In this document: one piece after another, positions 20,683 to 32,218 of the stretch
Numbering within the stretch: the first letter of the stretch is position 1
Layout of the letters: each line of letters opens with the position of its first letter
Assembly (NCBI GenBank): GCA_963674705.1
Contig: OY771506.1
Span: forward strand, 5,280,001-5,344,000
DNA from: Phycisphaeraceae bacterium
GTDB taxonomy: Bacteria > Planctomycetota > Phycisphaerae > Phycisphaerales > Phycisphaeraceae
DNA: 64,000 nt
Direction of reading: 5' to 3'
The notes under the pieces: generated by a model
Database searches by the model: none
What the model saw: only the letters and a program-made list of their open reading frames with translations
Told to the model about the DNA's origin: nothing
Program-made: the position numbers and the translations under genes

Positions 20683-21651
20683 ATGCAGCCAATCATCAAG
20701 CGACTCGCGGTTGCTATCTGGTTGACGGCAACATGCCTGTCCACTTGTATCACAAGCGCGCAGATCGTCAGCGATGTGACCGGCCAGATAGACCTGATGC
20801 TCGATCCATTTTTTGACATAGGTCCCCTGCCGACGGGTAACGGCGATGAGTGGGACATGCTGCCCCTTGAAACGCAGCATCAATACACCAGCGTCGGCAT
20901 GATGGATGTCAGCGCCTCATTCGACGGTGATGGATACTATACGGCTGACGGACTCAACCTCATCGATTACACATACGAATCAAAAAAGCCCAGTACCGCG
21001 AGATTCGATATACATGCTTTCGCCGACACGGAAGATGCCGGCGAGGGTGGCGGAGGATACGCCAATATCAACATGCAGATCACCTTTTCGCAGCCAGTCC
21101 AATATCGTTTCGAGGCAGACGTGATAGGTGTGCCATGTTTGTACGAGGTTTCGTTTAACGGCCGGTCGGCAAGCGCCTGGTACAGTGCCATGGGCATCTA
21201 CGGGGGCTCCTTCCCACCTGTCTATCACTACGACAACCCATTACCCGATGGTTGGGACACCTACATCGATGAAGGGGTGCTTCCTGCGGGTACTTATGAA
21301 TTAACCGTTACTGCTTATTCAAGGCTGCACCGTTACGGGATCGGACTGGACAGCGAAGGCTCGGCCAGCCTGAGTATCCAACTTCTTGGTGATGCCAATC
21401 TCAATGGACACGTGGGGCTCGAAGACCTCAATGCCGTACTGAATCACTGGCAGTGGACAAGCCATCACAATAGACAACTGCAGGGTGATCTTAACAACGA
21501 TGGATACGTCGGACTCGCCGATCTCGACGCCGTACTCACCGGCTGGGGCAGCAATGTCCGCAAACCATCACACATGGTCGTCCCGGAACCTGCAATCGCA
21601 ACACTCTTGCTGACAGCACTCGGTGTACTGCTGCGTCGACGCACTGTGTAA
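20683..21651 (+). CDS. PEP-CTERM protein with dockerin-like repeat
   Basis: Signal peptide; GDANLNGHVGLEDL / GDLNNDGYVGLADL; VPEPAIATLLL...RRR. Confidence 0.85.
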   Translation: MQPIIKRLAVAIWLTATCLSTCITSAQIVSDVTGQIDLMLDPFFDIGPLPTGNGDEWDMLPLETQHQYTSVGMMDVSASFDGDGYYTADGLNLIDYTYESKKPSTARFDIHAFADTEDAGEGGGGYANINMQITFSQPVQYRFEADVIGVPCLYEVSFNGRSASAWYSAMGIYGGSFPPVYHYDNPLPDGWDTYIDEGVLPAGTYELTVTAYSRLHRYGIGLDSEGSASLSIQLLGDANLNGHVGLEDLNAVLNHWQWTSHHNRQLQGDLNNDGYVGLADLDAVLTGWGSNVRKPSHMVVPEPAIATLLLTALGVLLRRRTV

Positions 21652-21983: not shown

Positions 21984-24900
21984 TCACCGGCCACGACGCT
22001 TGCGCGTTTTGCCTTTCGAGTCGCCGTCACCGCCTTTGCGTTCACGAGCCTGCGCGGCACGACGCTGGCGACGGGTCATCCGATCGGCACCTTCGTCTGA
22101 ACCAGCCCGGTCAGCAGCATCACGGTCGGCACGCTGCTGCGCCGTCCCGGCTGAAGCGGCCTGGCTCGCTGCCTGCGCGGTGTTTGGTACGCCTGCGCCG
22201 ACCGCCTGCCTGGCGTCGTCGTGCTTGGCCTGCTGGTTCTGATACACGTTGCGGGCCTGGACGTTCGGCGTCAGACGAGCACGGAAGATCAGCTCCGTCA
22301 CGCGGTCGCGGACCGCCTTCTGCATCTCGCCGAACTGCCGTGATCCTTCCCGCTTGTATTCGATACGCGGGTCCTTCTCGGCAAAACCACGCAGGCCGAT
22401 CGCGTCCTTCACTTGGTCCATCGAATACAGGTGATCCTTCCACGCCATATCCAGGATCTGGATCAGTACGAAGCGTTCGAGCTGCGTCAACTCGCTGCGC
22501 AGGAACTCACGCCCCTTGCTTGCCATAAACGAGGCGGTGTCCTTCGCTTCACCGATTTCCGATTCTTCGATATCGAGATCGAAACGTTCCTTCATCCATG
22601 CGGCAAGCGCAGCCGGATCGTTCTTGTGCGTTTCAGCCTTCTGCTTGCACTGCTCGATAAGCTTGTCGCCGTGCATCCACTGCTCGGCCTCATCGGTCAA
22701 AGCCTTGCCGATATCCGTAATGGTCATCTTCGCGACTTGTTCCGGCGTCCACTGCATCTCGTAACGCTGACGCGCCCAGGCGATTAACTGCTCCACCGCC
22801 CAGCTCTGATCCTGCTGCGCCCCCTTGAACACCATTTCAAGCACGAACTCGACCGGGTATGTCACTTCGCGACGCTTGTATGCATCGCGTGCCTGGCCAA
22901 GGATCTGCTCGGCGACTTCCTCAGGCTCCATCTTGGCAAGGTCTTCAGGTACCAGCTCGATCCCGAACTTGTTCCGCGCCCAGTTCGCCAGGTCACGCTG
23001 GCCGTAGAACGGCACGGTGAACTTCTCCAGGCCGCTCAGGTCCTTCTTCTCCGCCTGCTGCAATGCCGCTTCGGTCAGCTCTTCCTTGACATCATCGACG
23101 TTCATCTCGCGCAGCCGATTGGTCTTCAGGTCGACGCCGAACTTACTCATCGCCCATGACGACAAGCCACGCAGGTCCCAGTCTTCGATCGGGATGTCGT
23201 TTGACATGTACTCGCCTAAGGTCACGTCGACCGTCTGGCGGATCTCGTAGAACAGCGCCTTCTGCACGCTTTCGGTCAGTTCGTGCAGGTCGTCCAGGCG
23301 GATCTTTGAGGTATCCGCGCCGATGTCCAGCGTCTGCCGACACCACTCGACCACCTGTATCGGCACGTATTCTTTATTCAGATACTGATTGACCGCGTCG
23401 TCGACCGAGTCGGCGATGTAGTCGAAGATGATTTCCGCCACACGCTTGCCTTCCAGAACATCCTGCCGGATGCCGTAGAAGTAATTACGCTGATACTCCA
23501 TCACCTCGTCGTATTCGAGCAGGTTCTTGCGGATTTCGTAGTTGCGTTCTTCAACCTTACGCTGGGCGCGTTCGACGCTGCGTGTCACCCAGCGGTGCTC
23601 AATCGCGTCGCCTTCCTTCATACCGAGCTTGCTAAGCGCAGTCATCGTGGTCTTGCCGGCAAACATCGCCATCAAGTCGTCTTCAAGACTGATAAAGAAT
23701 CGGCTGGAGCCCTTGTCGCCCTGACGGCCGGATCGACCACGCAACTGGTTGTCGATACGCCTCGACTCGTGCCGTTCCGTGCCGATGATGTGCAGGCCGC
23801 CCATCTCTTCGGTGTTGGGATAGACCCGCAGCCGGTGCTTCTCGTACTCCGGCAAGCCGTCGAGCGTTTCGGCGCACTGCTCCAGCGTCATCTTCTGGAC
23901 TTTTTTCTCATCCACCCATGCATCGGTCTGGCACCAGTGCCGGAACAGCTTGAGCTTGACCTCATCGATCGACATCTGCTCAACTTCCTTCTGCTTGAGC
24001 TTCAGCTCGGTATGCAACTGGTGCCGATACGACGTCTCGATCAGTTGCTCGTCGCTCATCTCCGGCTTCGCGCTGGCGGGGATAAGGTTGCGCTGCTGCC
24101 AGTGACGAATGAGATTGGCCCGTTCGACAGGACGGAGCTTGATGTCCGTACCACGGCCGGCCATGTTCGTCGCGATCATCACGGCGCCGAGTTCACCGGC
24201 ATCTCGCACGATGTTCGATTCACGCTCGACCTGGTCGACCTTCGCGTTGAGCACCTCGTGCTTGATGCCGTGCCTTTGCTTAAGCATCTGTGAGAGCATC
24301 TCGCTACGTTCGACGCTGGTCGTACCGACCAACACCGGCCGACCGATGTCGTGGATCCGCTTGATCTCATCTGTGATCGCGTTCCACTTGTCTTTGCTCG
24401 ACAGGAAGATCAGGTCATCCCGGTCCTGGCGAATCACCGGAACGTTCGTCGGGATACAGACGACGTCCAGCCGATAGATTTCCATAAACTCGGTTGCCTC
24501 GGTAATGGCCGTACCCGTCATACCGCCAAGCCGCTTGAACATCTTGAAGTAGTTCTGCAGCGTGATGGTCGCCATTGTCTGCGTTTCCTGCTTGATCTTG
24601 ACCTTTTCCTTGGCCTCGACCGCCTGGTGCAAACCATCCGACCACTGCCTGCCGATCATCAAACGCCCGGTAAATTCGTCGACGATGATCACATCCCCGT
24701 TACGCACAACATAATCCTTATCACGCTGATACACTGCGTGAGCACGGATCGCGTTCTCCAATAGATGCGGGAAGTCCATGTTGTTACCAACATAGAACGA
24801 ACCGATGCCCGCTTTCTTCTGCGCCTCAGCAATACCTTCATGCGTCAGGTGCGCTGCCTTGCGCTCCATTTCAACTTCGTAGTACTGCGTGAACTGATCG

Positions 24901-26135
24901 CGTTCTGCTTCAAGCCCGGGCATCGACACCTGCGTCTTCTTCATCTCCTCGCGCATCTGGGCGATCTTAGCCTTGTCACGAGAGTTGCGGATGTCGCCCT
25001 CGAGCCCCTTGATCTTCTTCTCGGCTGTCTCAACCTTCTTGTTCGCCGCGTCCCATTCACGCTGCTTCATCATCAGGTGCGCAGCAACCTGGTCCGCCAG
25101 CCCGTACTGCGGCGCGTTGTCATGAGCCGGGCCCGAAATAATCAGAGGCGTACGCGCCTCATCGACCAGGATCGAGTCGACTTCGTCGATGATGCAGAAG
25201 TCACGCTTTTTCTGGAGCTGCTCTTGAGCCGTCAGCTTCATGTTGTCGCGCAAGTAGTCGAAGCCAAACTCGCTGTTCGTGCCGTAGAGCACATCGCAGT
25301 GATACGCCTCGGACTTAAGATGATTGGCTGCCTCGAATATCGCCCGTGGATTCGTCAGGTCCGCCTGAGCGTACGGGTGAACCGGTGAGGCCGCCAGCTG
25401 CCGGACCTGCTCCTCCAGTTGGTGCATCGGGTGGATCGCACCGACCGTCAGCCCAAGGTGATAATAGAACGGGAACACCCAGTCGCGGTCACGCTGCACC
25501 AGGTAGTCGTTCACCGTGATCACGCAGCATTGCAAGCTCTCTACGCATGCCACGTAACACGCCAGCGGCGCTACGATCGTCTTACCTTCGCCGGTCTTCA
25601 TCTCGGCGATCTTGCCCTCGCCCAGCACCATACCGCCGATCAACTGCACATCAAACGGCCTGGCACGGAACGGCGGGCGTGACTGCGGGTAAAGCTCTCG
25701 CACCGACTCGTACAGCTCCAACGGGATTTCCACCTGCATCCAACCCGGCACGGGCATACCGCCCTGCACCGCAATCGGCTCTAAAGCATCGGCCTCAGCC
25801 TTCACCTTCTCATAGACCCCGCGCATCGCTACGGGTAACTGCGTATGATCAAAACCCGCCTCGGGATTCAAGATGTTGCGGATGCCGACCGATCGGTCCA
25901 TCACCTCGCGCGCCACGGCCATGACTTCTGCCTGCATCGAATCGATCGATGCGCCATCCTGGAACCGCTGGCGGAATCCTTCTGTCTTCGTCTTGAGCTG
26001 CGAATCGGTCAACTTCCGAATCTCAGGCTCCAGCGCATTGATCTCAATCACGCGCCGGGCATACCGCTTGAGCAACCGGTCGTTACGCGAGCCGAACACT
26101 TTCACAAATGGTTTACTGATGTATTGAACTACCAT
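21984..26135 (-). CDS. secA: Preprotein translocase ATPase SecA, about 1383 aa with large insertions
   Basis: EMKTGEGKT, DEVDSILVDEARTPLIISG, TNMAGRGTDI and HESRRIDNQLRGRSGRQGD. ATG at 26135 chosen as start. Confidence 0.97.
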   Translation of the reverse strand: MVVQYISKPFVKVFGSRNDRLLKRYARRVIEINALEPEIRKLTDSQLKTKTEGFRQRFQDGASIDSMQAEVMAVAREVMDRSVGIRNILNPEAGFDHTQLPVAMRGVYEKVKAEADALEPIAVQGGMPVPGWMQVEIPLELYESVRELYPQSRPPFRARPFDVQLIGGMVLGEGKIAEMKTGEGKTIVAPLACYVACVESLQCCVITVNDYLVQRDRDWVFPFYYHLGLTVGAIHPMHQLEEQVRQLAASPVHPYAQADLTNPRAIFEAANHLKSEAYHCDVLYGTNSEFGFDYLRDNMKLTAQEQLQKKRDFCIIDEVDSILVDEARTPLIISGPAHDNAPQYGLADQVAAHLMMKQREWDAANKKVETAEKKIKGLEGDIRNSRDKAKIAQMREEMKKTQVSMPGLEAERDQFTQYYEVEMERKAAHLTHEGIAEAQKKAGIGSFYVGNNMDFPHLLENAIRAHAVYQRDKDYVVRNGDVIIVDEFTGRLMIGRQWSDGLHQAVEAKEKVKIKQETQTMATITLQNYFKMFKRLGGMTGTAITEATEFMEIYRLDVVCIPTNVPVIRQDRDDLIFLSSKDKWNAITDEIKRIHDIGRPVLVGTTSVERSEMLSQMLKQRHGIKHEVLNAKVDQVERESNIVRDAGELGAVMIATNMAGRGTDIKLRPVERANLIRHWQQRNLIPASAKPEMSDEQLIETSYRHQLHTELKLKQKEVEQMSIDEVKLKLFRHWCQTDAWVDEKKVQKMTLEQCAETLDGLPEYEKHRLRVYPNTEEMGGLHIIGTERHESRRIDNQLRGRSGRQGDKGSSRFFISLEDDLMAMFAGKTTMTALSKLGMKEGDAIEHRWVTRSVERAQRKVEERNYEIRKNLLEYDEVMEYQRNYFYGIRQDVLEGKRVAEIIFDYIADSVDDAVNQYLNKEYVPIQVVEWCRQTLDIGADTSKIRLDDLHELTESVQKALFYEIRQTVDVTLGEYMSNDIPIEDWDLRGLSSWAMSKFGVDLKTNRLREMNVDDVKEELTEAALQQAEKKDLSGLEKFTVPFYGQRDLANWARNKFGIELVPEDLAKMEPEEVAEQILGQARDAYKRREVTYPVEFVLEMVFKGAQQDQSWAVEQLIAWARQRYEMQWTPEQVAKMTITDIGKALTDEAEQWMHGDKLIEQCKQKAETHKNDPAALAAWMKERFDLDIEESEIGEAKDTASFMASKGREFLRSELTQLERFVLIQILDMAWKDHLYSMDQVKDAIGLRGFAEKDPRIEYKREGSRQFGEMQKAVRDRVTELIFRARLTPNVQARNVYQNQQAKHDDARQAVGAGVPNTAQAASQAASAGTAQQRADRDAADRAGSDEGADRMTRRQRRAAQARERKGGDGDSKGKTRKRRGR

Positions 26136-26186
26136 GATAGATTCTCGAGGTTTGAATATTGGGAGAATATTGATGTTCAACGTTGG

Positions 26187-26265
26187 AGCCATCAGCCGTT
26201 AGCCATTAGCCGTTAGTTTTAAAACACTAACCACTAATCACAAACCACTAATTACAAACTCAAAC
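26187..26265. repeat. Heptamer tandem repeats (AGCC(A/G)TT-type, then CCACTAA-type)
   Basis: agccatc agccgtt agccatt agccgtt, then cactaac cactaat cacaaac cactaat. Confidence 0.7.
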
Positions 26266-26332
26266 ATTGCACATCAAGCGCAAGCACTGCTGAAACTTAA
26301 CTGGGATGTAAAATAGATAACTCGCCGTGTCG

Positions 26333-26719
26333 TCAGAGCGTCGACACTGGGGGAGGCAGGTTCAGCAGATGCTCACCAACAGGCGCCTGGAGATGGACCC
26401 ATCCCGCATCGGTATAGGGTCGTAAGGCAGTCGGCTCGTGAAGCAGCGGCGCATCGCCGGGCTCTGTTGTGAAGTGGACGACCTGTCCATTCGGGACCTT
26501 GCAGAGCTTGCGGGCGGCCTCATTCAGATTCGACAGCAGTGTCGCGACCGATTCCCGCTCCGACGCGGTCGTCCCGTGTCGGCCCAGGCTCGAAGCCACC
26601 ACCGCCGCGGCCGTGGTCCCGTCGGACATCGCCCCGATGCACAGCAATACGGACAGCGCCAGCGTTACCGTCGGTACGCCGGTCCTAGGCCCGATAATCT
26701 GAGAATCGCGTCGCTTCAC
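26333..26719 (-). CDS. Small ORF upstream of secA with a hydrophobic N-terminal segment and C-terminal LPPP (candidate arrest peptide)
   Basis: TVTLALSVLLCIGAM...AAAVVA hydrophobic stretch; ends HLLNLPPPVSTL; co-oriented with secA. Confidence 0.6.
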   Translation of the reverse strand: MKRRDSQIIGPRTGVPTVTLALSVLLCIGAMSDGTTAAAVVASSLGRHGTTASERESVATLLSNLNEAARKLCKVPNGQVVHFTTEPGDAPLLHEPTALRPYTDAGWVHLQAPVGEHLLNLPPPVSTL

Positions 26720-26806
26720 ACCCTTATTATCGTCCGCCCTTGGCCCGCGGGCAAATGCCTGCCTTCAAACTACCACGAAATCCGCCTTATCGGCTCCACA
26801 AGCCAC

Positions 26807-29578
26807 TTAAACCTTTTTCATCACCAGACCATCCGGTCCCTGATAGCTCTCCAGCGTGTGATAGGTCAGCCCGAAAGCGTATCGCGAGGAATTGAGCAAA
26901 ACAGTCTCCAAACGAACCACGCCGATCTCCCAGGCCGAGACGTATGAGTTGGCAAAAACCCCGTTCAGCACGCTCAGATGCTGGATCGCCCCCCGTTCTG
27001 TGAAGTCACTTGCCGTCTGCACCATCCCCGCAGAGATCGTTTCGCTACCGACCTGAACGCTGCTGTTGATCATCGAACCGACTTGAATCGTGTCGATCGA
27101 TGCCATCGTGTTAACAGTCACATCCCGCATCTCACCGCCGACGCGAAGCAACTCCACCCCAACACTGAGTGAGTAGCCATCCAGCGTGATACTGCCGCTG
27201 TCATAGTCCTTCTTTATCACAATCTCATCAGCTAGCGGAGCCGAAAGATCGACGCCGGTCATGTTGAGTGCTTTAAATCGCGCAAGTGGCGAATCCAGTG
27301 TGACATCACCTGTCACCCGCCCGGCATTAATCCGCAAACCTTTCTTAAACGACCTGCCGGGCATCAGGATCCCATTGATCGATCCGATCGCTAACCGCTC
27401 GATCGCACCCTGCCCGGACATCTGAATGCCGCCGGCAGTCATATCGAGTTTACTTGCTGCCAATGCCCCCAGTAGCGAAGAACCATAGACACTGCCCAGC
27501 ATCTCCGCCCGACCCCGCGTCCCTTTCGCCTTGGAAGTCAGAACACTTAGCCCGGTTTCTGCCGTGGTCTGGTTCAACTCGATATCAAGCAGCACCGCAT
27601 GACCCGACAACTCAATCACACCACCCAGGTCACAAGCGATCAGGCCATCGCCGACCATGGAAACATAAGCCGAACCCGCCCCTGCCATCTTCAATGTGAC
27701 AATCGTCCCGTCCGCTTCGCGATAAGCCAACGACTTATCCGCAGACACTTCATACACATGCCGCAATTCAGTTTTCGTAACAGCCTGACACAGATGCCCG
27801 TCGTTATCCTCAGCAATCGCGATAACCTTGGATTCTGATCCGGGCTCAAAACCCCTCAAACCGTCAATGTTGATACTGAAGCCGTCTGAGCCGTTGTTAT
27901 CGATACCCAATACATCCTCCGCCCAGCCATCCATATCATCGTCGTAGAAGAACACGACGCGTTCGACCGTCCCGTCAGGGTCGTACACCCCTTGGGCGGT
28001 GATCGTTGTTGGCATCGTTTGCGAAATGTACTCACCATCAACGACAACCCGTTCGATCTGCGGAAGCGCATAGATCCCGAAGTTGATATTCCCCACATTA
28101 CAGCCACTGTAAACCGAGACCTTTCGGGTCAACGAGAGATACTCGGATGACCGCCAACCGTCCGGCACATCTACTACCAGGTAGATCGATTCAGAAAGAT
28201 TCTTCCGCGAGGTCACTTCCCAACCGCCGTTGAAGTAATAGGTTTCGGTAATCTTGACCTCTGTCGGGATGCCCGTAATCTCGAATCGGCCGTCCGATCC
28301 CGTGATCGCGATCCTGTCTGTCCCAGACACGCGAACCTGCATGCCAGACAGCCCCTGTTCGTTCGCATCACGAACACCGTTGGCATTGCGGTCGTGGAAA
28401 AACACACCGCTTACCGTCGCCGGCTCGCCTTCGATGTTGTAACTACGTATGCCGAAGTAACTGTCCGTGGTACCGCCGATGCTGATACTGGTACCACCGT
28501 CGTACGTCCACCCGGGATTGATTGTGACAGTACCGCCGCCCACGCCGCCAAGGCCGCCGTCATACCCAAACCCCGGCGTGTACCCACCGTATGGATTATC
28601 GCTGTTCCAATTATCGATCACCGTATCGACCTGATCCGCATCGATCGTCGCCCGACGTTTTGACGCTTTGAACAGCACCGACTCAGCCGACACCGCAATG
28701 TGATCCGATTGATTAAGGTCACTTTGCAGATACCTGCCGCCCGCTTGCACGATCAGATAACTATTAAAGTCTGCAAGTGAATCGGGCAGCTTGAGCCGCA
28801 GCCAGGTTTTAAACGTCTCGCCCGCGCCGACCTCACGCTGAATCTTGAACACCTTCAGCCGCCAGTCTTTAGCGTTGCGGACCCCGTCACTGGACAGGAA
28901 CAACGCCAACCGCAGCTTGCCGGCGGGCAGAGCTGTGTCACCCGTGTTCTTGATGATCACAGGTATCTTCACGCGTTTGCCGGTCTGGTAAGACTGCGCA
29001 AGCGTTACCTCGCTGAGATGCACGCTGATATCAAAACCGCTGCGCACCAGGCCTATCGATAAACCGGCAACACCTTCCGCCGGCGTGATACTTACCGATG
29101 ATGATTCGTCGCTGCCTGCTGATGGTTTATAGCCCTCCGGCAAAACCGCGCGGATGTCATAATGACCGGTTGGCAGCCCGGCCAACATGAAACCGCCATC
29201 GTTGCCTGTGTAGATCGCCCTTTCCCCATCGTCACGCACTTTGTTGCCGTTCACATCCGCGAATACCTGCACGCCAAACAGCGCGTGCTCGTTCGGGTCC
29301 CAGATGCCATCCTGATCGACATCCGCAAATACCGTCCCCGATACGCTGAATGCTGGCCCCGCATGCTCGGTCACGGGCATGTATACGGAAACATCTTGCC
29401 CTGCATACTCAACCGTGTCATTACTAACAGGTAACTTACCCAATACGGCACCACTTAACAGCAGCCGCGGCTCTAACTGCTCCAGTATCGTACTGGGCGT
29501 CGCACCACCGCCCCGCTCAACGCGCTGCCTGTGCATGCGAGGCTTCATACCCAGAAATCCGGACAGGGAAAATGCCAT
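26807..29578 (-). CDS. LEPRxLL (planctomycete extracellular) protein with SdrD-B-like and CARDB-like domains
   Basis: LEQLEPRLLLSG; two SGxxFxDxxxxGxxDxNE SdrD-B-like repeats. Confidence 0.8.
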   Translation of the reverse strand: MAFSLSGFLGMKPRMHRQRVERGGGATPSTILEQLEPRLLLSGAVLGKLPVSNDTVEYAGQDVSVYMPVTEHAGPAFSVSGTVFADVDQDGIWDPNEHALFGVQVFADVNGNKVRDDGERAIYTGNDGGFMLAGLPTGHYDIRAVLPEGYKPSAGSDESSSVSITPAEGVAGLSIGLVRSGFDISVHLSEVTLAQSYQTGKRVKIPVIIKNTGDTALPAGKLRLALFLSSDGVRNAKDWRLKVFKIQREVGAGETFKTWLRLKLPDSLADFNSYLIVQAGGRYLQSDLNQSDHIAVSAESVLFKASKRRATIDADQVDTVIDNWNSDNPYGGYTPGFGYDGGLGGVGGGTVTINPGWTYDGGTSISIGGTTDSYFGIRSYNIEGEPATVSGVFFHDRNANGVRDANEQGLSGMQVRVSGTDRIAITGSDGRFEITGIPTEVKITETYYFNGGWEVTSRKNLSESIYLVVDVPDGWRSSEYLSLTRKVSVYSGCNVGNINFGIYALPQIERVVVDGEYISQTMPTTITAQGVYDPDGTVERVVFFYDDDMDGWAEDVLGIDNNGSDGFSINIDGLRGFEPGSESKVIAIAEDNDGHLCQAVTKTELRHVYEVSADKSLAYREADGTIVTLKMAGAGSAYVSMVGDGLIACDLGGVIELSGHAVLLDIELNQTTAETGLSVLTSKAKGTRGRAEMLGSVYGSSLLGALAASKLDMTAGGIQMSGQGAIERLAIGSINGILMPGRSFKKGLRINAGRVTGDVTLDSPLARFKALNMTGVDLSAPLADEIVIKKDYDSGSITLDGYSLSVGVELLRVGGEMRDVTVNTMASIDTIQVGSMINSSVQVGSETISAGMVQTASDFTERGAIQHLSVLNGVFANSYVSAWEIGVVRLETVLLNSSRYAFGLTYHTLESYQGPDGLVMKKV

Positions 29579-29596
29579 AGAAGTGTCCCACTTCAC

Positions 29597-31963
29597 TCAA
29601 ACCATCGTTAGCTGAACCATCTCCGGCCCGTTGTAGCTTCCCAACTTGCGGTAATAGAGCCCGGCCTCTTCAGCCGAATCACTTATCACCACACGTTTCA
29701 GGTTCACTTCCCCGATACGCCACGCGGCCACGCTGGAATTGACGAACCCACCCTTGCCCACAGTCAACTGCTCGATAGCACAACGTTTGGTTGATGTGCT
29801 GAGTACGGATGCCGGCGTATCAAACAGCGATCCTTCCGCCGCCAGAACAGTGCAGAAACGCATCGCATTTGCCCGGATCGTGCCGATCGATGAAGCAGCC
29901 TGCACATTCACATGCTTGAACTTTTTACCCACCTGCAACAGGGCCAGGCTTTCTTCGGCTGTGCTGTCCGTCAAGGAGAGTGTACCGCTGACGTAATCTT
30001 TCTTAATGATAATCTTCCCGGCACTGGACGCGGTCACATCAACATTCCATAAGTGGTCAACCGCCAATAACCGCAACGCTGTCGACAGATTGATATCACC
30101 ATTCACTTCATCGGCTTCGATTACCACACCGTTACTGAATCGCACACCCTCCATATGAATCGCACCGACCTTGTCGGCTCGGATCCGACGGATCACACCG
30201 TTGCCGGTCATTTCGATACCACCGACCAGGCTGCACCCACGTGCATCAAGTACACCCAGGGGAGTTGAGCCCTTGATGACACCCAGGATCGCCTGCCTGG
30301 TGTTGGTTTCATCTCCACGAACGGAGAAACGGAGCTTGCTCCTGCCGGAAGTGTCGACTAATTGGATATCATTAACATACGCAAAGCCGGTCACTTCGAT
30401 GGCATTGCCGACATCCCATACTTCAAAGCCCTCGCCACTTAGCTGTATCTCGGCACTGCCCCGCCCACTTAACGCGATGGTCGTTATCGCGTCTACTTCG
30501 TTGCGGAAGACAAGCTTCTTGCCGGCCGTTACCTCAACCACAGTGCGTGATTGGGCATTGATCGACTTCGCAGCCAACTCGCCGTTATTATCCATCGCAA
30601 CGACGACAACCCGCGAATCTTCCGCCAACGTGCGGTTTTTGCCCAGCCTAGAAAGGATGGAATACCCATCCGAACCGTCCGTGTCGACGCCCAGCAGGTC
30701 TTCGAGTACGCCATCGTAGTTTCGGTCATAGAAGAACATCACTTGTCTGACCGTCCCGTTCGAGTCGGTAACGCTATCGACGCTGATGCGTGTTTGCTCA
30801 CCCCGAACAAGTGAACCACCCTCGATCTGGATAGTCCCGATAGTCGGTGCGTTGTAGTACCTCCCCTCTTGAGTAGGAGGTGTCCCCGCGTTCCAGTTGC
30901 CCAGTTCGATATTCAAATCACTCAAGCCAACGTAGCCATCATAACCATACCCCGGGGTATAGCCGCCGTAGGGCACGTTGTTGTTCCACGCGGCTAACAC
31001 AATATCCAGGTCGGACGTATTCAGATTGCTTGCCTTGCCGGATGCCGAAAAGGACAATGCTGTATCGCTGACAAGCGTGTTGTCCGCGGCGTTCACATCA
31101 GCTCGCAAAGAATAGCCAACCGCTTTTACGATCACGTAACTGTTGAATGCGGAAAGCGAATCGGGCAGGTTTACTTCCAGATTGAGTTTGATCGACTCGC
31201 CCGGTTGCAGGTTCAAGTTGTGCTTGATTTTCGCAACCATGGTGTCATCGTCAGACCAGACTGATCCTTCGGAAAGATACACCCGTAGTTGGATGTTATT
31301 GGCGTTAAGTACCTCATTCCCCTGATTCGAGAGGATCACCGGGATCTTCACGCGTGTGCCGGTCTTGAAGCGTGCCGGCATCGATATGTCGCTGTATCGC
31401 AGAGTCAGATCGAAACCGGTTGCTGTCAGGCCGAACTGCATGTTCCGCATACCGGAGGTTGGTGAAATAGCAACCCCCTTGCCTTCACCGTCGGGCGTTG
31501 AGGCCATGTAACCATCGGGCATCAGAACGTGGATGTCGTATGTCCCGGTTGGCAGGCCACTAAACCGGAAGTAGCCGTCGCCGTCAGTCGTTGCGGTTTT
31601 TTCACCGGCATCTTGTTTGCCATTGCCATCAAGATCAGCAAAGAGGCTGACGCCTTGCAGCCTGTACTCGCTTGGGTCCAGCAAACCATCGCCATCATCA
31701 TCCAGAAAGACTTTGCCGGAAACGCTTGGCGCCATCACGGCTTCGGTTACATCTGGCAACAGCAGCGTATACGTCCCGTCTGCGCCGATGACCTTGTCGT
31801 AACTGTCCACAGGTGGCGGATCGATCAGCGAAACACCCGACAGCAGCACACGCTCTTCCAACGGCTCAAGGCCGGGATTGGGTGCGGCTGTTAGCGACTG
31901 CTTGTTTTGACCGTGGCCTGATCGTTTGGCCCGGCGAAAGAACCCGAAAGCTGGAATATGCAT
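29597..31963 (-). CDS. LEPRxLL extracellular protein, paralogue of 26807-29578
   Basis: LEPLEERVLLSG; SGKVFLDDDGDGLLDPSE; shares the TGxRVKIPVI and PYGGYTPG blocks. Confidence 0.8.
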   Translation of the reverse strand: MHIPAFGFFRRAKRSGHGQNKQSLTAAPNPGLEPLEERVLLSGVSLIDPPPVDSYDKVIGADGTYTLLLPDVTEAVMAPSVSGKVFLDDDGDGLLDPSEYRLQGVSLFADLDGNGKQDAGEKTATTDGDGYFRFSGLPTGTYDIHVLMPDGYMASTPDGEGKGVAISPTSGMRNMQFGLTATGFDLTLRYSDISMPARFKTGTRVKIPVILSNQGNEVLNANNIQLRVYLSEGSVWSDDDTMVAKIKHNLNLQPGESIKLNLEVNLPDSLSAFNSYVIVKAVGYSLRADVNAADNTLVSDTALSFSASGKASNLNTSDLDIVLAAWNNNVPYGGYTPGYGYDGYVGLSDLNIELGNWNAGTPPTQEGRYYNAPTIGTIQIEGGSLVRGEQTRISVDSVTDSNGTVRQVMFFYDRNYDGVLEDLLGVDTDGSDGYSILSRLGKNRTLAEDSRVVVVAMDNNGELAAKSINAQSRTVVEVTAGKKLVFRNEVDAITTIALSGRGSAEIQLSGEGFEVWDVGNAIEVTGFAYVNDIQLVDTSGRSKLRFSVRGDETNTRQAILGVIKGSTPLGVLDARGCSLVGGIEMTGNGVIRRIRADKVGAIHMEGVRFSNGVVIEADEVNGDINLSTALRLLAVDHLWNVDVTASSAGKIIIKKDYVSGTLSLTDSTAEESLALLQVGKKFKHVNVQAASSIGTIRANAMRFCTVLAAEGSLFDTPASVLSTSTKRCAIEQLTVGKGGFVNSSVAAWRIGEVNLKRVVISDSAEEAGLYYRKLGSYNGPEMVQLTMV

Positions 31964-32218
31964 AGAAGCTTCCCCCACGAAGCTGGATCGAGCGAAGTCA
32001 CTCAAATGAAGCGAAATTCAGATGCACGGCAGGATTAATCTACCACGGAGTCTGTTTTCCCGCAAGCCGTGTTACAGCAACCATTAACATAAAAATGACA
32101 CATCGCTTAAACTCTGCGATGTCCGCCCGGTTGGACGATCGGCGGCTCAGCGATATGATCGCCTGACTGAACGTGCCATAATCAATTGAATAACAGGCGG
32201 AATCACTACGGAAAACTC

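Follow-up and report, generated by a model that had tools for sequence, protein, structure and literature searches.

Arrest peptides encoded upstream of secA in planctomycetes have been described as the uA_LPPP family (Fujiwara, Tsuji, Yoshida, Takada, Chiba 2024, Nat Commun 15:2711; PMC10987492), i.e., secA upstream open reading frames (uORFs) with LPPP in their last 15 residues, with Phycisphaerales, UBA1161, and WQYP01 as hosts. As given in the text of that paper, one homologue reached an arrest fraction of 1.0 in vitro with B. subtilis ribosomes, arrest was lowered by L110A and P111A, and toeprinting placed Pro112 in the P site. The in vivo arrest index of the homologue was 22.4 in B. subtilis and 1.59 in E. 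coli, and arrest on E. coli ribosomes in vitro was weak (0.51) and was ascribed by the authors to absent EF-P (PMC10987492). In the sections used here, the stalling assays were performed with B. subtilis and E. coli and none with a planctomycete ribosome, and downstream induction was tested solely for an RQH peptide before secDF, which induced its downstream gene (PMC10987492). In a literature search mostly without subscription journals, nothing relevant to uA_LPPP was found beyond the 2024 paper, and nothing on a leaderless start or on Rho-dependent control of the family (the latter searched since 2021); the main text of an EMBO J 2025 follow-up holds 0 occurrences of LPPP.

According to the sections of the source papers used here, the monitors SecM, VemP, and the RQH peptide that was assayed are described as working through unmasking of the SD. 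In E. coli SecM, a stem-loop that covers the SD of secA is melted by the stalled ribosome (PMC10987492), and the arginines of helix 4 are a precedent for an element outside the tunnel that modulates arrest (PMC6993859). In VemP of Vibrio, Arg-85, a conserved Arg beside a hydrophobic segment, sets the release of arrest in SecY (PMC11470409). CruR of Bordetella (Roy et al. 2022, PMC9426467) is reported in the text of that paper as a Pro-containing arrest uORF with a gap of 162 bp, whose stalled ribosome shields the transcript from Rho.

The window, i.e., the whole stretch of 64,000 nucleotides analysed here, encodes secA on the minus strand (21984..26135, 1383 aa), as identified via Pfam and via the NCBIfam models TIGR00963 (878.9 bits, cut-off 800) and NF009538, both above cut-off. 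The likely start codon is the ATG at 26135, a position shared by relatives; the mechanical ORF list puts the start 19 codons earlier. As stated in the first-pass annotation, which was made from the sequence alone, a 128-aa ORF lies about 200 nt upstream and is co-oriented with secA: the uORF occupies 26333..26719 (minus strand, GTG start), and its stop codon is separated from the secA start by 197 nt. Its translation ends in ...HLLNLPPPVSTL, and the LPPP was confirmed at 26348-26359, corresponding to residues 121-124 of 128, followed by four residues and the stop codon. The arrest motif LLNLPPP (residues 118-124; 26348..26368, minus strand) matches the family consensus, and Pro123 is the predicted P-site codon at the stall, based on the toeprint of the homologue. 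The window uORF shares with uA_LPPP the position before secA, LPPP in the last 15 residues, the signal-type N-terminus, a spacer of more than 30 aa, and the bacterial family, and no difference was found in family-defining features. All sequence-level features by which the family is defined were found in it, i.e., a small unannotated secA-adjacent ORF, motif, signal, spacer, conserved C-terminus, and host.

Four uORFs of the relatives compared (genomes G013, G041, G138, and G145, all in the family of the window's genome, two of the four uORFs being part of the 82-uORF profile described below) correspond to rows 878-881 of the published supplement, listed as uA_LPPP_Phycisphaerales, and were identical by eye (PMC10987492). 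The window uORF itself was not among the 14 uA_LPPP rows compared, out of 50 in the supplement table. Judged by its sequence, it is a member of the published uA_LPPP family and of low novelty. The earlier proposal of an arrest-peptide-type secA uORF in a planctomycete is borne out by a published family with a homologue that stalls ribosomes, and the accompanying caution that LPPP uORFs may already have been surveyed was justified, as peptides of this family had been published in 2024 (PMC10987492). Modest additions beyond the main text of the uA_LPPP paper, in which “promoter,” “leaderless,” and “helix” have 0 occurrences, are the promoter position, the central helix, and the stop-codon hairpin; the supplementary family logo (Fig. 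7) of the paper may already show the central helix. As a member of uA_LPPP, the window uORF quite likely encodes an arrest peptide that monitors Sec and controls secA.

No match to the uORF was found in Pfam or NCBIfam, the SecM family included. The uORF resembles E. coli SecM in its signal sequence, spacer, Pro-containing C-terminal arrest motif, and position before secA, but ends in LPPP where SecM carries RAGP; the RQH family, ApdA, and ApdP have a RAPP-like motif, which is absent from the window uORF translation. LPPP within the last 15 aa was found in 19 of 43,126 six-frame segments of at least 60 aa genome-wide, and the extended motif near a stop codon occurs a single time in the genome, at the uORF before secA, so that the motif is not attributable to chance. 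The dN/dS of the uORF against nine congeners was 0.07-0.56, and by this comparison of sequences the uORF is under purifying selection. Its codon score was low (0.033 per codon versus 0.062, the 5th percentile of crude genes); the coding status consequently rests on conservation, with no support from codon bias.

The first-pass annotation had also read a basic N-terminus and a signal- or TM-like stretch from the translation, and both were recovered. The first 15 residues have a net charge of +3, and the hydrophobic core of the signal-peptide-like N-terminus (residues 18-30; 26630..26668, minus strand) is the most hydrophobic 13-mer of the uORF (Kyte-Doolittle 2.48), within a helix at residues 16-32 of the AlphaFold model. 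From the end of this core to Pro123, the spacer measures 93 residues (family median 90), and the previously given linker of about 75 aa holds only if the Ala-rich stretch directly after the core is counted as hydrophobic.

Conservation was assessed on 126 distinct secA loci, i.e., the window's own, 117 from its family, and eight from other families of the order, after dropping 13 duplicate loci; of the 127 genomes of the family in which secA was matched, nine were left out. An ORF ending in XPPP precedes secA in 121 of these loci (111 LPPP, 5 RPPP, 3 MPPP, 2 IPPP), so that the motif keeps its position before secA, as the first-pass annotation had proposed to check; the genomes being kin, these counts show conservation and not independent events. 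Of the five remaining loci, three are truncated by contig ends and two, L015 (G020) and L064 (G088), have no XPPP uORF before secA (2 of the 123 loci whose upstream DNA was long enough to judge). These two are apparent losses and useful as natural controls. The family consensus was L-[LTI]-[ND]-L-P-P-P, with two to four residues and then the stop codon in 104 of the 121 loci, and the gap between uORF and secA ranged from 84 to 311 nt (median 156). RPPP endings were found in L040, L055, L059, L069, and L100 and MPPP endings in L080, L081, and L083; RPPP is a step towards RAPP-like motifs.

A profile built from 82 uORFs outside the genus retrieved the window uORF at an E-value of 4.9e-22, with the next-best segment of the genome at 0.012, and no further LPPP uORFs were found in the window's genome by motif or profile. 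Using a 79-sequence profile, 276 cluster representatives were obtained at E ≤0.001, and 148 of the best 150 hits end in XPPP. In a profile search of a 120-genome sample of the class, all strong matches came from the order to which the window belongs; matches outside the order were weak and partial (best E 4e-5). Protein statistics were calculated for 92 of the 121 uORFs, leaving out 29 without a promoter-defined start. Judged by hydropathy, a signal-type segment was present in 92/92 of these homologues, beginning within the first 35 residues in 90.

The three invariant prolines, together with an EF-P gene in the genome and the authors' view that a lack of EF-P explains the arrest seen in vitro with E. 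coli ribosomes (PMC10987492), would fit a leader that senses EF-P or prolyl-tRNA supply and for which export force is irrelevant. Such a leader is very improbable given the signal-type N-terminus in all 92 homologues, the fixed position before secA, and, in the text of the published study, arrest of the homologue in vivo in B. subtilis and its need for Leu110 in vitro with B. subtilis ribosomes (PMC10987492).

Conservation had been expected to be limited to the hydrophobic N-terminus and LPPP; both elements are conserved, but so is a central helix. Homologue comparison and AlphaFold delimit a conserved amphipathic helix at residues 57-73 (26501..26551, minus strand). Within it, Arg70 precedes the predicted P-site Pro by 53 residues. 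Arg or Lys occupies this position in 83 of 92 homologues at a median of 51 aa before the P-site Pro (IQR 50-55, sd 5.1), and its distance from the signal is more variable (sd 8.3). The hydrophobic moment of the helix peaks at 0.57. The helix motif was found in 111 of 150 profile hits versus 8 of 150 for a control window, the hits having been chosen by a profile that contains the motif. In the AlphaFold model, a helix at 52-73 (pLDDT about 80) is among the most confident parts, and the remainder of the uORF is low-confidence coil (pTM 0.31). In VemP, the arrest sequence differs from LPPP, and Arg-85 lies about 70 residues from the stall site, farther than the 51 residues of the uA_LPPP homologues. 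VemP is like the window uORF as an exported monitor with a conserved Arg (PMC11470409, as far as its text was used here), but VemP controls secDF and the window uORF precedes secA. SecM likewise has an Arg-bearing helix that modulates arrest outside the tunnel (PMC6993859, with the same scope), comparable to the Arg-bearing central helix here.

The family-wide retention of this helix and the high confidence with which it is modelled, relative to most of the uORF, would also suit an exported small protein or an accessory of SecA or SecY, in which the central helix does the work, LPPP is a C-terminal motif of the mature protein, and the stall is incidental. This possibility is rated marginally lower still than a proline-supply leader, as the rest of the model is low-confidence coil with a pTM of 0.31, the helix-to-PPP distance is as narrow as nascent-chain geometry would require (IQR 50-55), and the homologue stalls strongly according to the published text (PMC10987492). 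In the favoured reading of a Sec-monitoring arrest peptide, the Arg helix would, at a distance of about 51 residues from the P site, be located immediately beyond the exit tunnel or within the translocon, where it could tune the lifetime or release of the stall.

A sigma-70-type promoter was predicted at 26726..26754 (minus strand; -35 at 26749-26754, 17-nt spacer, -10 at 26726-26731), ending 6 nt before the GTG of the uORF. It is the sole promoter-like site in 26050-26950, which on its own is weak, as shuffles give 0.4 +/- 0.7. A similar site was found in 94 of 118 testable related loci, with GATAAT as the -10 hexamer in 81; three loci were too short and left out, and the pattern had been chosen after inspecting the window locus. 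In 80 of the 94 loci an in-frame start codon lies 5-9 nt past the promoter (other frames 1 and 3), and the same promoter pattern occurs inside the gap between uORF and secA in five of 121 loci. Because of this conserved promoter 5-9 nt before the uORF start codon, the mRNA carrying uORF and secA is probably leaderless, as far as sequence can tell. Across the window's genome, the same promoter-start arrangement was found for 112 of 3,544 crudely called genes versus 62 at a control distance; it is therefore not a habit of the genome.

The proposed course of events is as follows. One mRNA, probably leaderless, would carry uORF and secA, and the signal sequence would direct the nascent chain to SecYEG. 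The ribosome would stall when the second proline of LPPP occupies the P site, as demonstrated for one homologue. By analogy with SecM, VemP, and one RQH peptide, we infer that the window uORF is released by force and controls secA: where export works, pulling would release the stall and secA would stay basal, and where export falters, the stall would persist and secA output would rise. According to the folding tests presented below, the link to secA across 197 nt would be something other than direct SD unmasking.

An RNA hairpin of 6-7 bp spans the stop codon, from the codons that follow PPP to a point shortly beyond the stop (26327..26347, minus strand), and shows covariation in the genus. 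In 11 close relatives, 88% of cells were paired and three pairs had two-sided changes, a covariation score reached by two of 500 shuffles, with the caveat that kin are not independent. Family-wide, just 37 of the 121 loci had at least three of the expected pairs. The 5' arm of this hairpin would lie beneath a stalled ribosome. The untranslated gap of 197 nt that follows (26136..26332, minus strand) contains a G-poor stretch, a long hairpin, and a small RBS hairpin. The G-poor stretch of 35 nt after the stop-codon hairpin was seen in 11 of 11 close relatives, a count without a matched control. The long imperfect hairpin is formed by two opposed heptamer-repeat tracts (26170-26277), one of which recurs at about 30 further sites in the genome; it is shared with genome G004 and not aligned in other congeners, and thus looks like a recent repeat insertion. 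For an intrinsic terminator, one weak match was found in the gap, no more than in shuffles.

Since the gap is not only long but also of variable length (84-311 nt), and no conserved switch structure was found in it, the stalled peptide could alternatively hold the secA mRNA at the translocon for local synthesis of SecA, without setting its amount. For SecM, a localising role has been proposed. This alternative is improbable: the covarying stop-codon hairpin of the genus suggests a function at the RNA level, and the sole new peptide tested in the published text (RQH) induced its downstream gene (PMC10987492). Control of secA output by a Sec-monitoring peptide is the preferred reading.

The weak GAGA site, i.e., the secA RBS, is located at 26143-26146 within a small hairpin predicted to fold over it (26141-26168, minus strand). 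The pairing of GAGA with a nearby TTCTC noted in the first-pass annotation is present in the minimum-energy fold of 26110-26360, but control through this local pairing found no support, as the hairpin is about 180 nt away from the stall site. In equilibrium folding with the footprint blocked, opening the secA initiation region cost 6.8 instead of 6.7, 5.9 instead of 5.7, or 5.9 instead of 7.1 kcal/mol, according to which region was folded, i.e., a gain of -0.2 to +1.2 kcal/mol at the window locus. The family-wide median gain was 0.11 kcal/mol (26 of 121 loci above +1, six below -1). Direct pairing between the footprint and the secA start had been suggested by single folds and by the genus consensus (a 5-bp helix with no two-sided change) and was rejected: among the 121 loci no conserved pairing was found, the highest mean pair probability being about 0.03, and native duplexes (-15.8 kcal/mol) were about 1 kcal/mol stronger than cross-species duplexes (-14.8 to -15.0) but no stronger than an upstream control (-16.2) or synonymous resampling (-16.3), both arms being coding-constrained. 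Given the small opening gains, the lack of conserved pairing, and duplexes no stronger than these two controls, direct SD unmasking is unsupported in equilibrium folding. The locus differs in this from SecM, where the text consulted has the stalled ribosome acting on a stem-loop over the SD; here some 200 nt separate the SD from the stall, and folding predicts no comparable effect.

Among the routes by which the stall could act on secA, attenuation by Rho or protection of the mRNA within the gap is plausible without quite being probable, an indirect RNA refolding relay from the stop-codon hairpin is conceivable at somewhat lower likelihood, and some other route is unlikely. The window's genome encodes canonical rho and EF-P; a second Rho-like gene at G000:C1:14571-15737 (minus strand) reached 401 bits and thereby fell short of the family cut-off. 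CruR offers a possible analogy for attenuation by Rho: both loci have a C-terminal Pro arrest motif and a long gap, and Rho in the window's genome and C > G over the 3' half of the window uORF are in line with it. CruR differs in that it senses copper through CXXC and uses RAPP according to the published text (PMC9426467), where the window uORF ends in LPPP, and the C>G skew seen here does not exceed the background given by secA fourfold sites. A Rut-like C>G bias was considered and discarded. C exceeds G in 103 of 121 gaps, but the family gap skew (0.165 versus 0.214 at secA fourfold sites, r 0.61) equals the background bias of the sense strand, and the bias is absent over the window's whole gap (-0.06).

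A transcription-level Sec monitor, in which ribosomes would load on a leaderless uORF at the extreme 5' end of the mRNA, the export-dependent stall would block Rho termination or decay in the long gap in place of unmasking an SD, and the Arg helix would be a release or retention element in SecY, is put forward as a tentative and rather doubtful elaboration. The promoter position, the fixed helix-to-stall distance, and the stop hairpin give specific mutations with which the output step of uA_LPPP could be probed, and such mutations would ask whether planctomycete Sec feedback runs through transcription attenuation.

With its 1383 aa, the SecA of the window has long insertions relative to the 787-814 positions of the family model, and open frames of relatives are of similar length. 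In the closest relative, L003 (G004:C1 near 2580300), secA is 98-99% identical and a one-base deletion near codon 90 splits the frame, the simplest reading being a sequencing error in a C run. A 322-aa ORF at 20683-21651 (plus strand) is convergent with secA; it had no NCBIfam match and shows a PEP-CTERM-like tail by eye (VPEP, hydrophobic stretch, RRRR). On the other side, two tandem genes (26807-29596 and 29597-32005, minus strand) encode large proteins of 929 and 802 aa with SdrD B-like domains (Pfam), the former gene ending 53 nt before the uORF promoter. Both proteins carry an LE(P/E)R(L/V)LLS motif near the N-terminus, which we take to be typical of planctomycete extracellular proteins.
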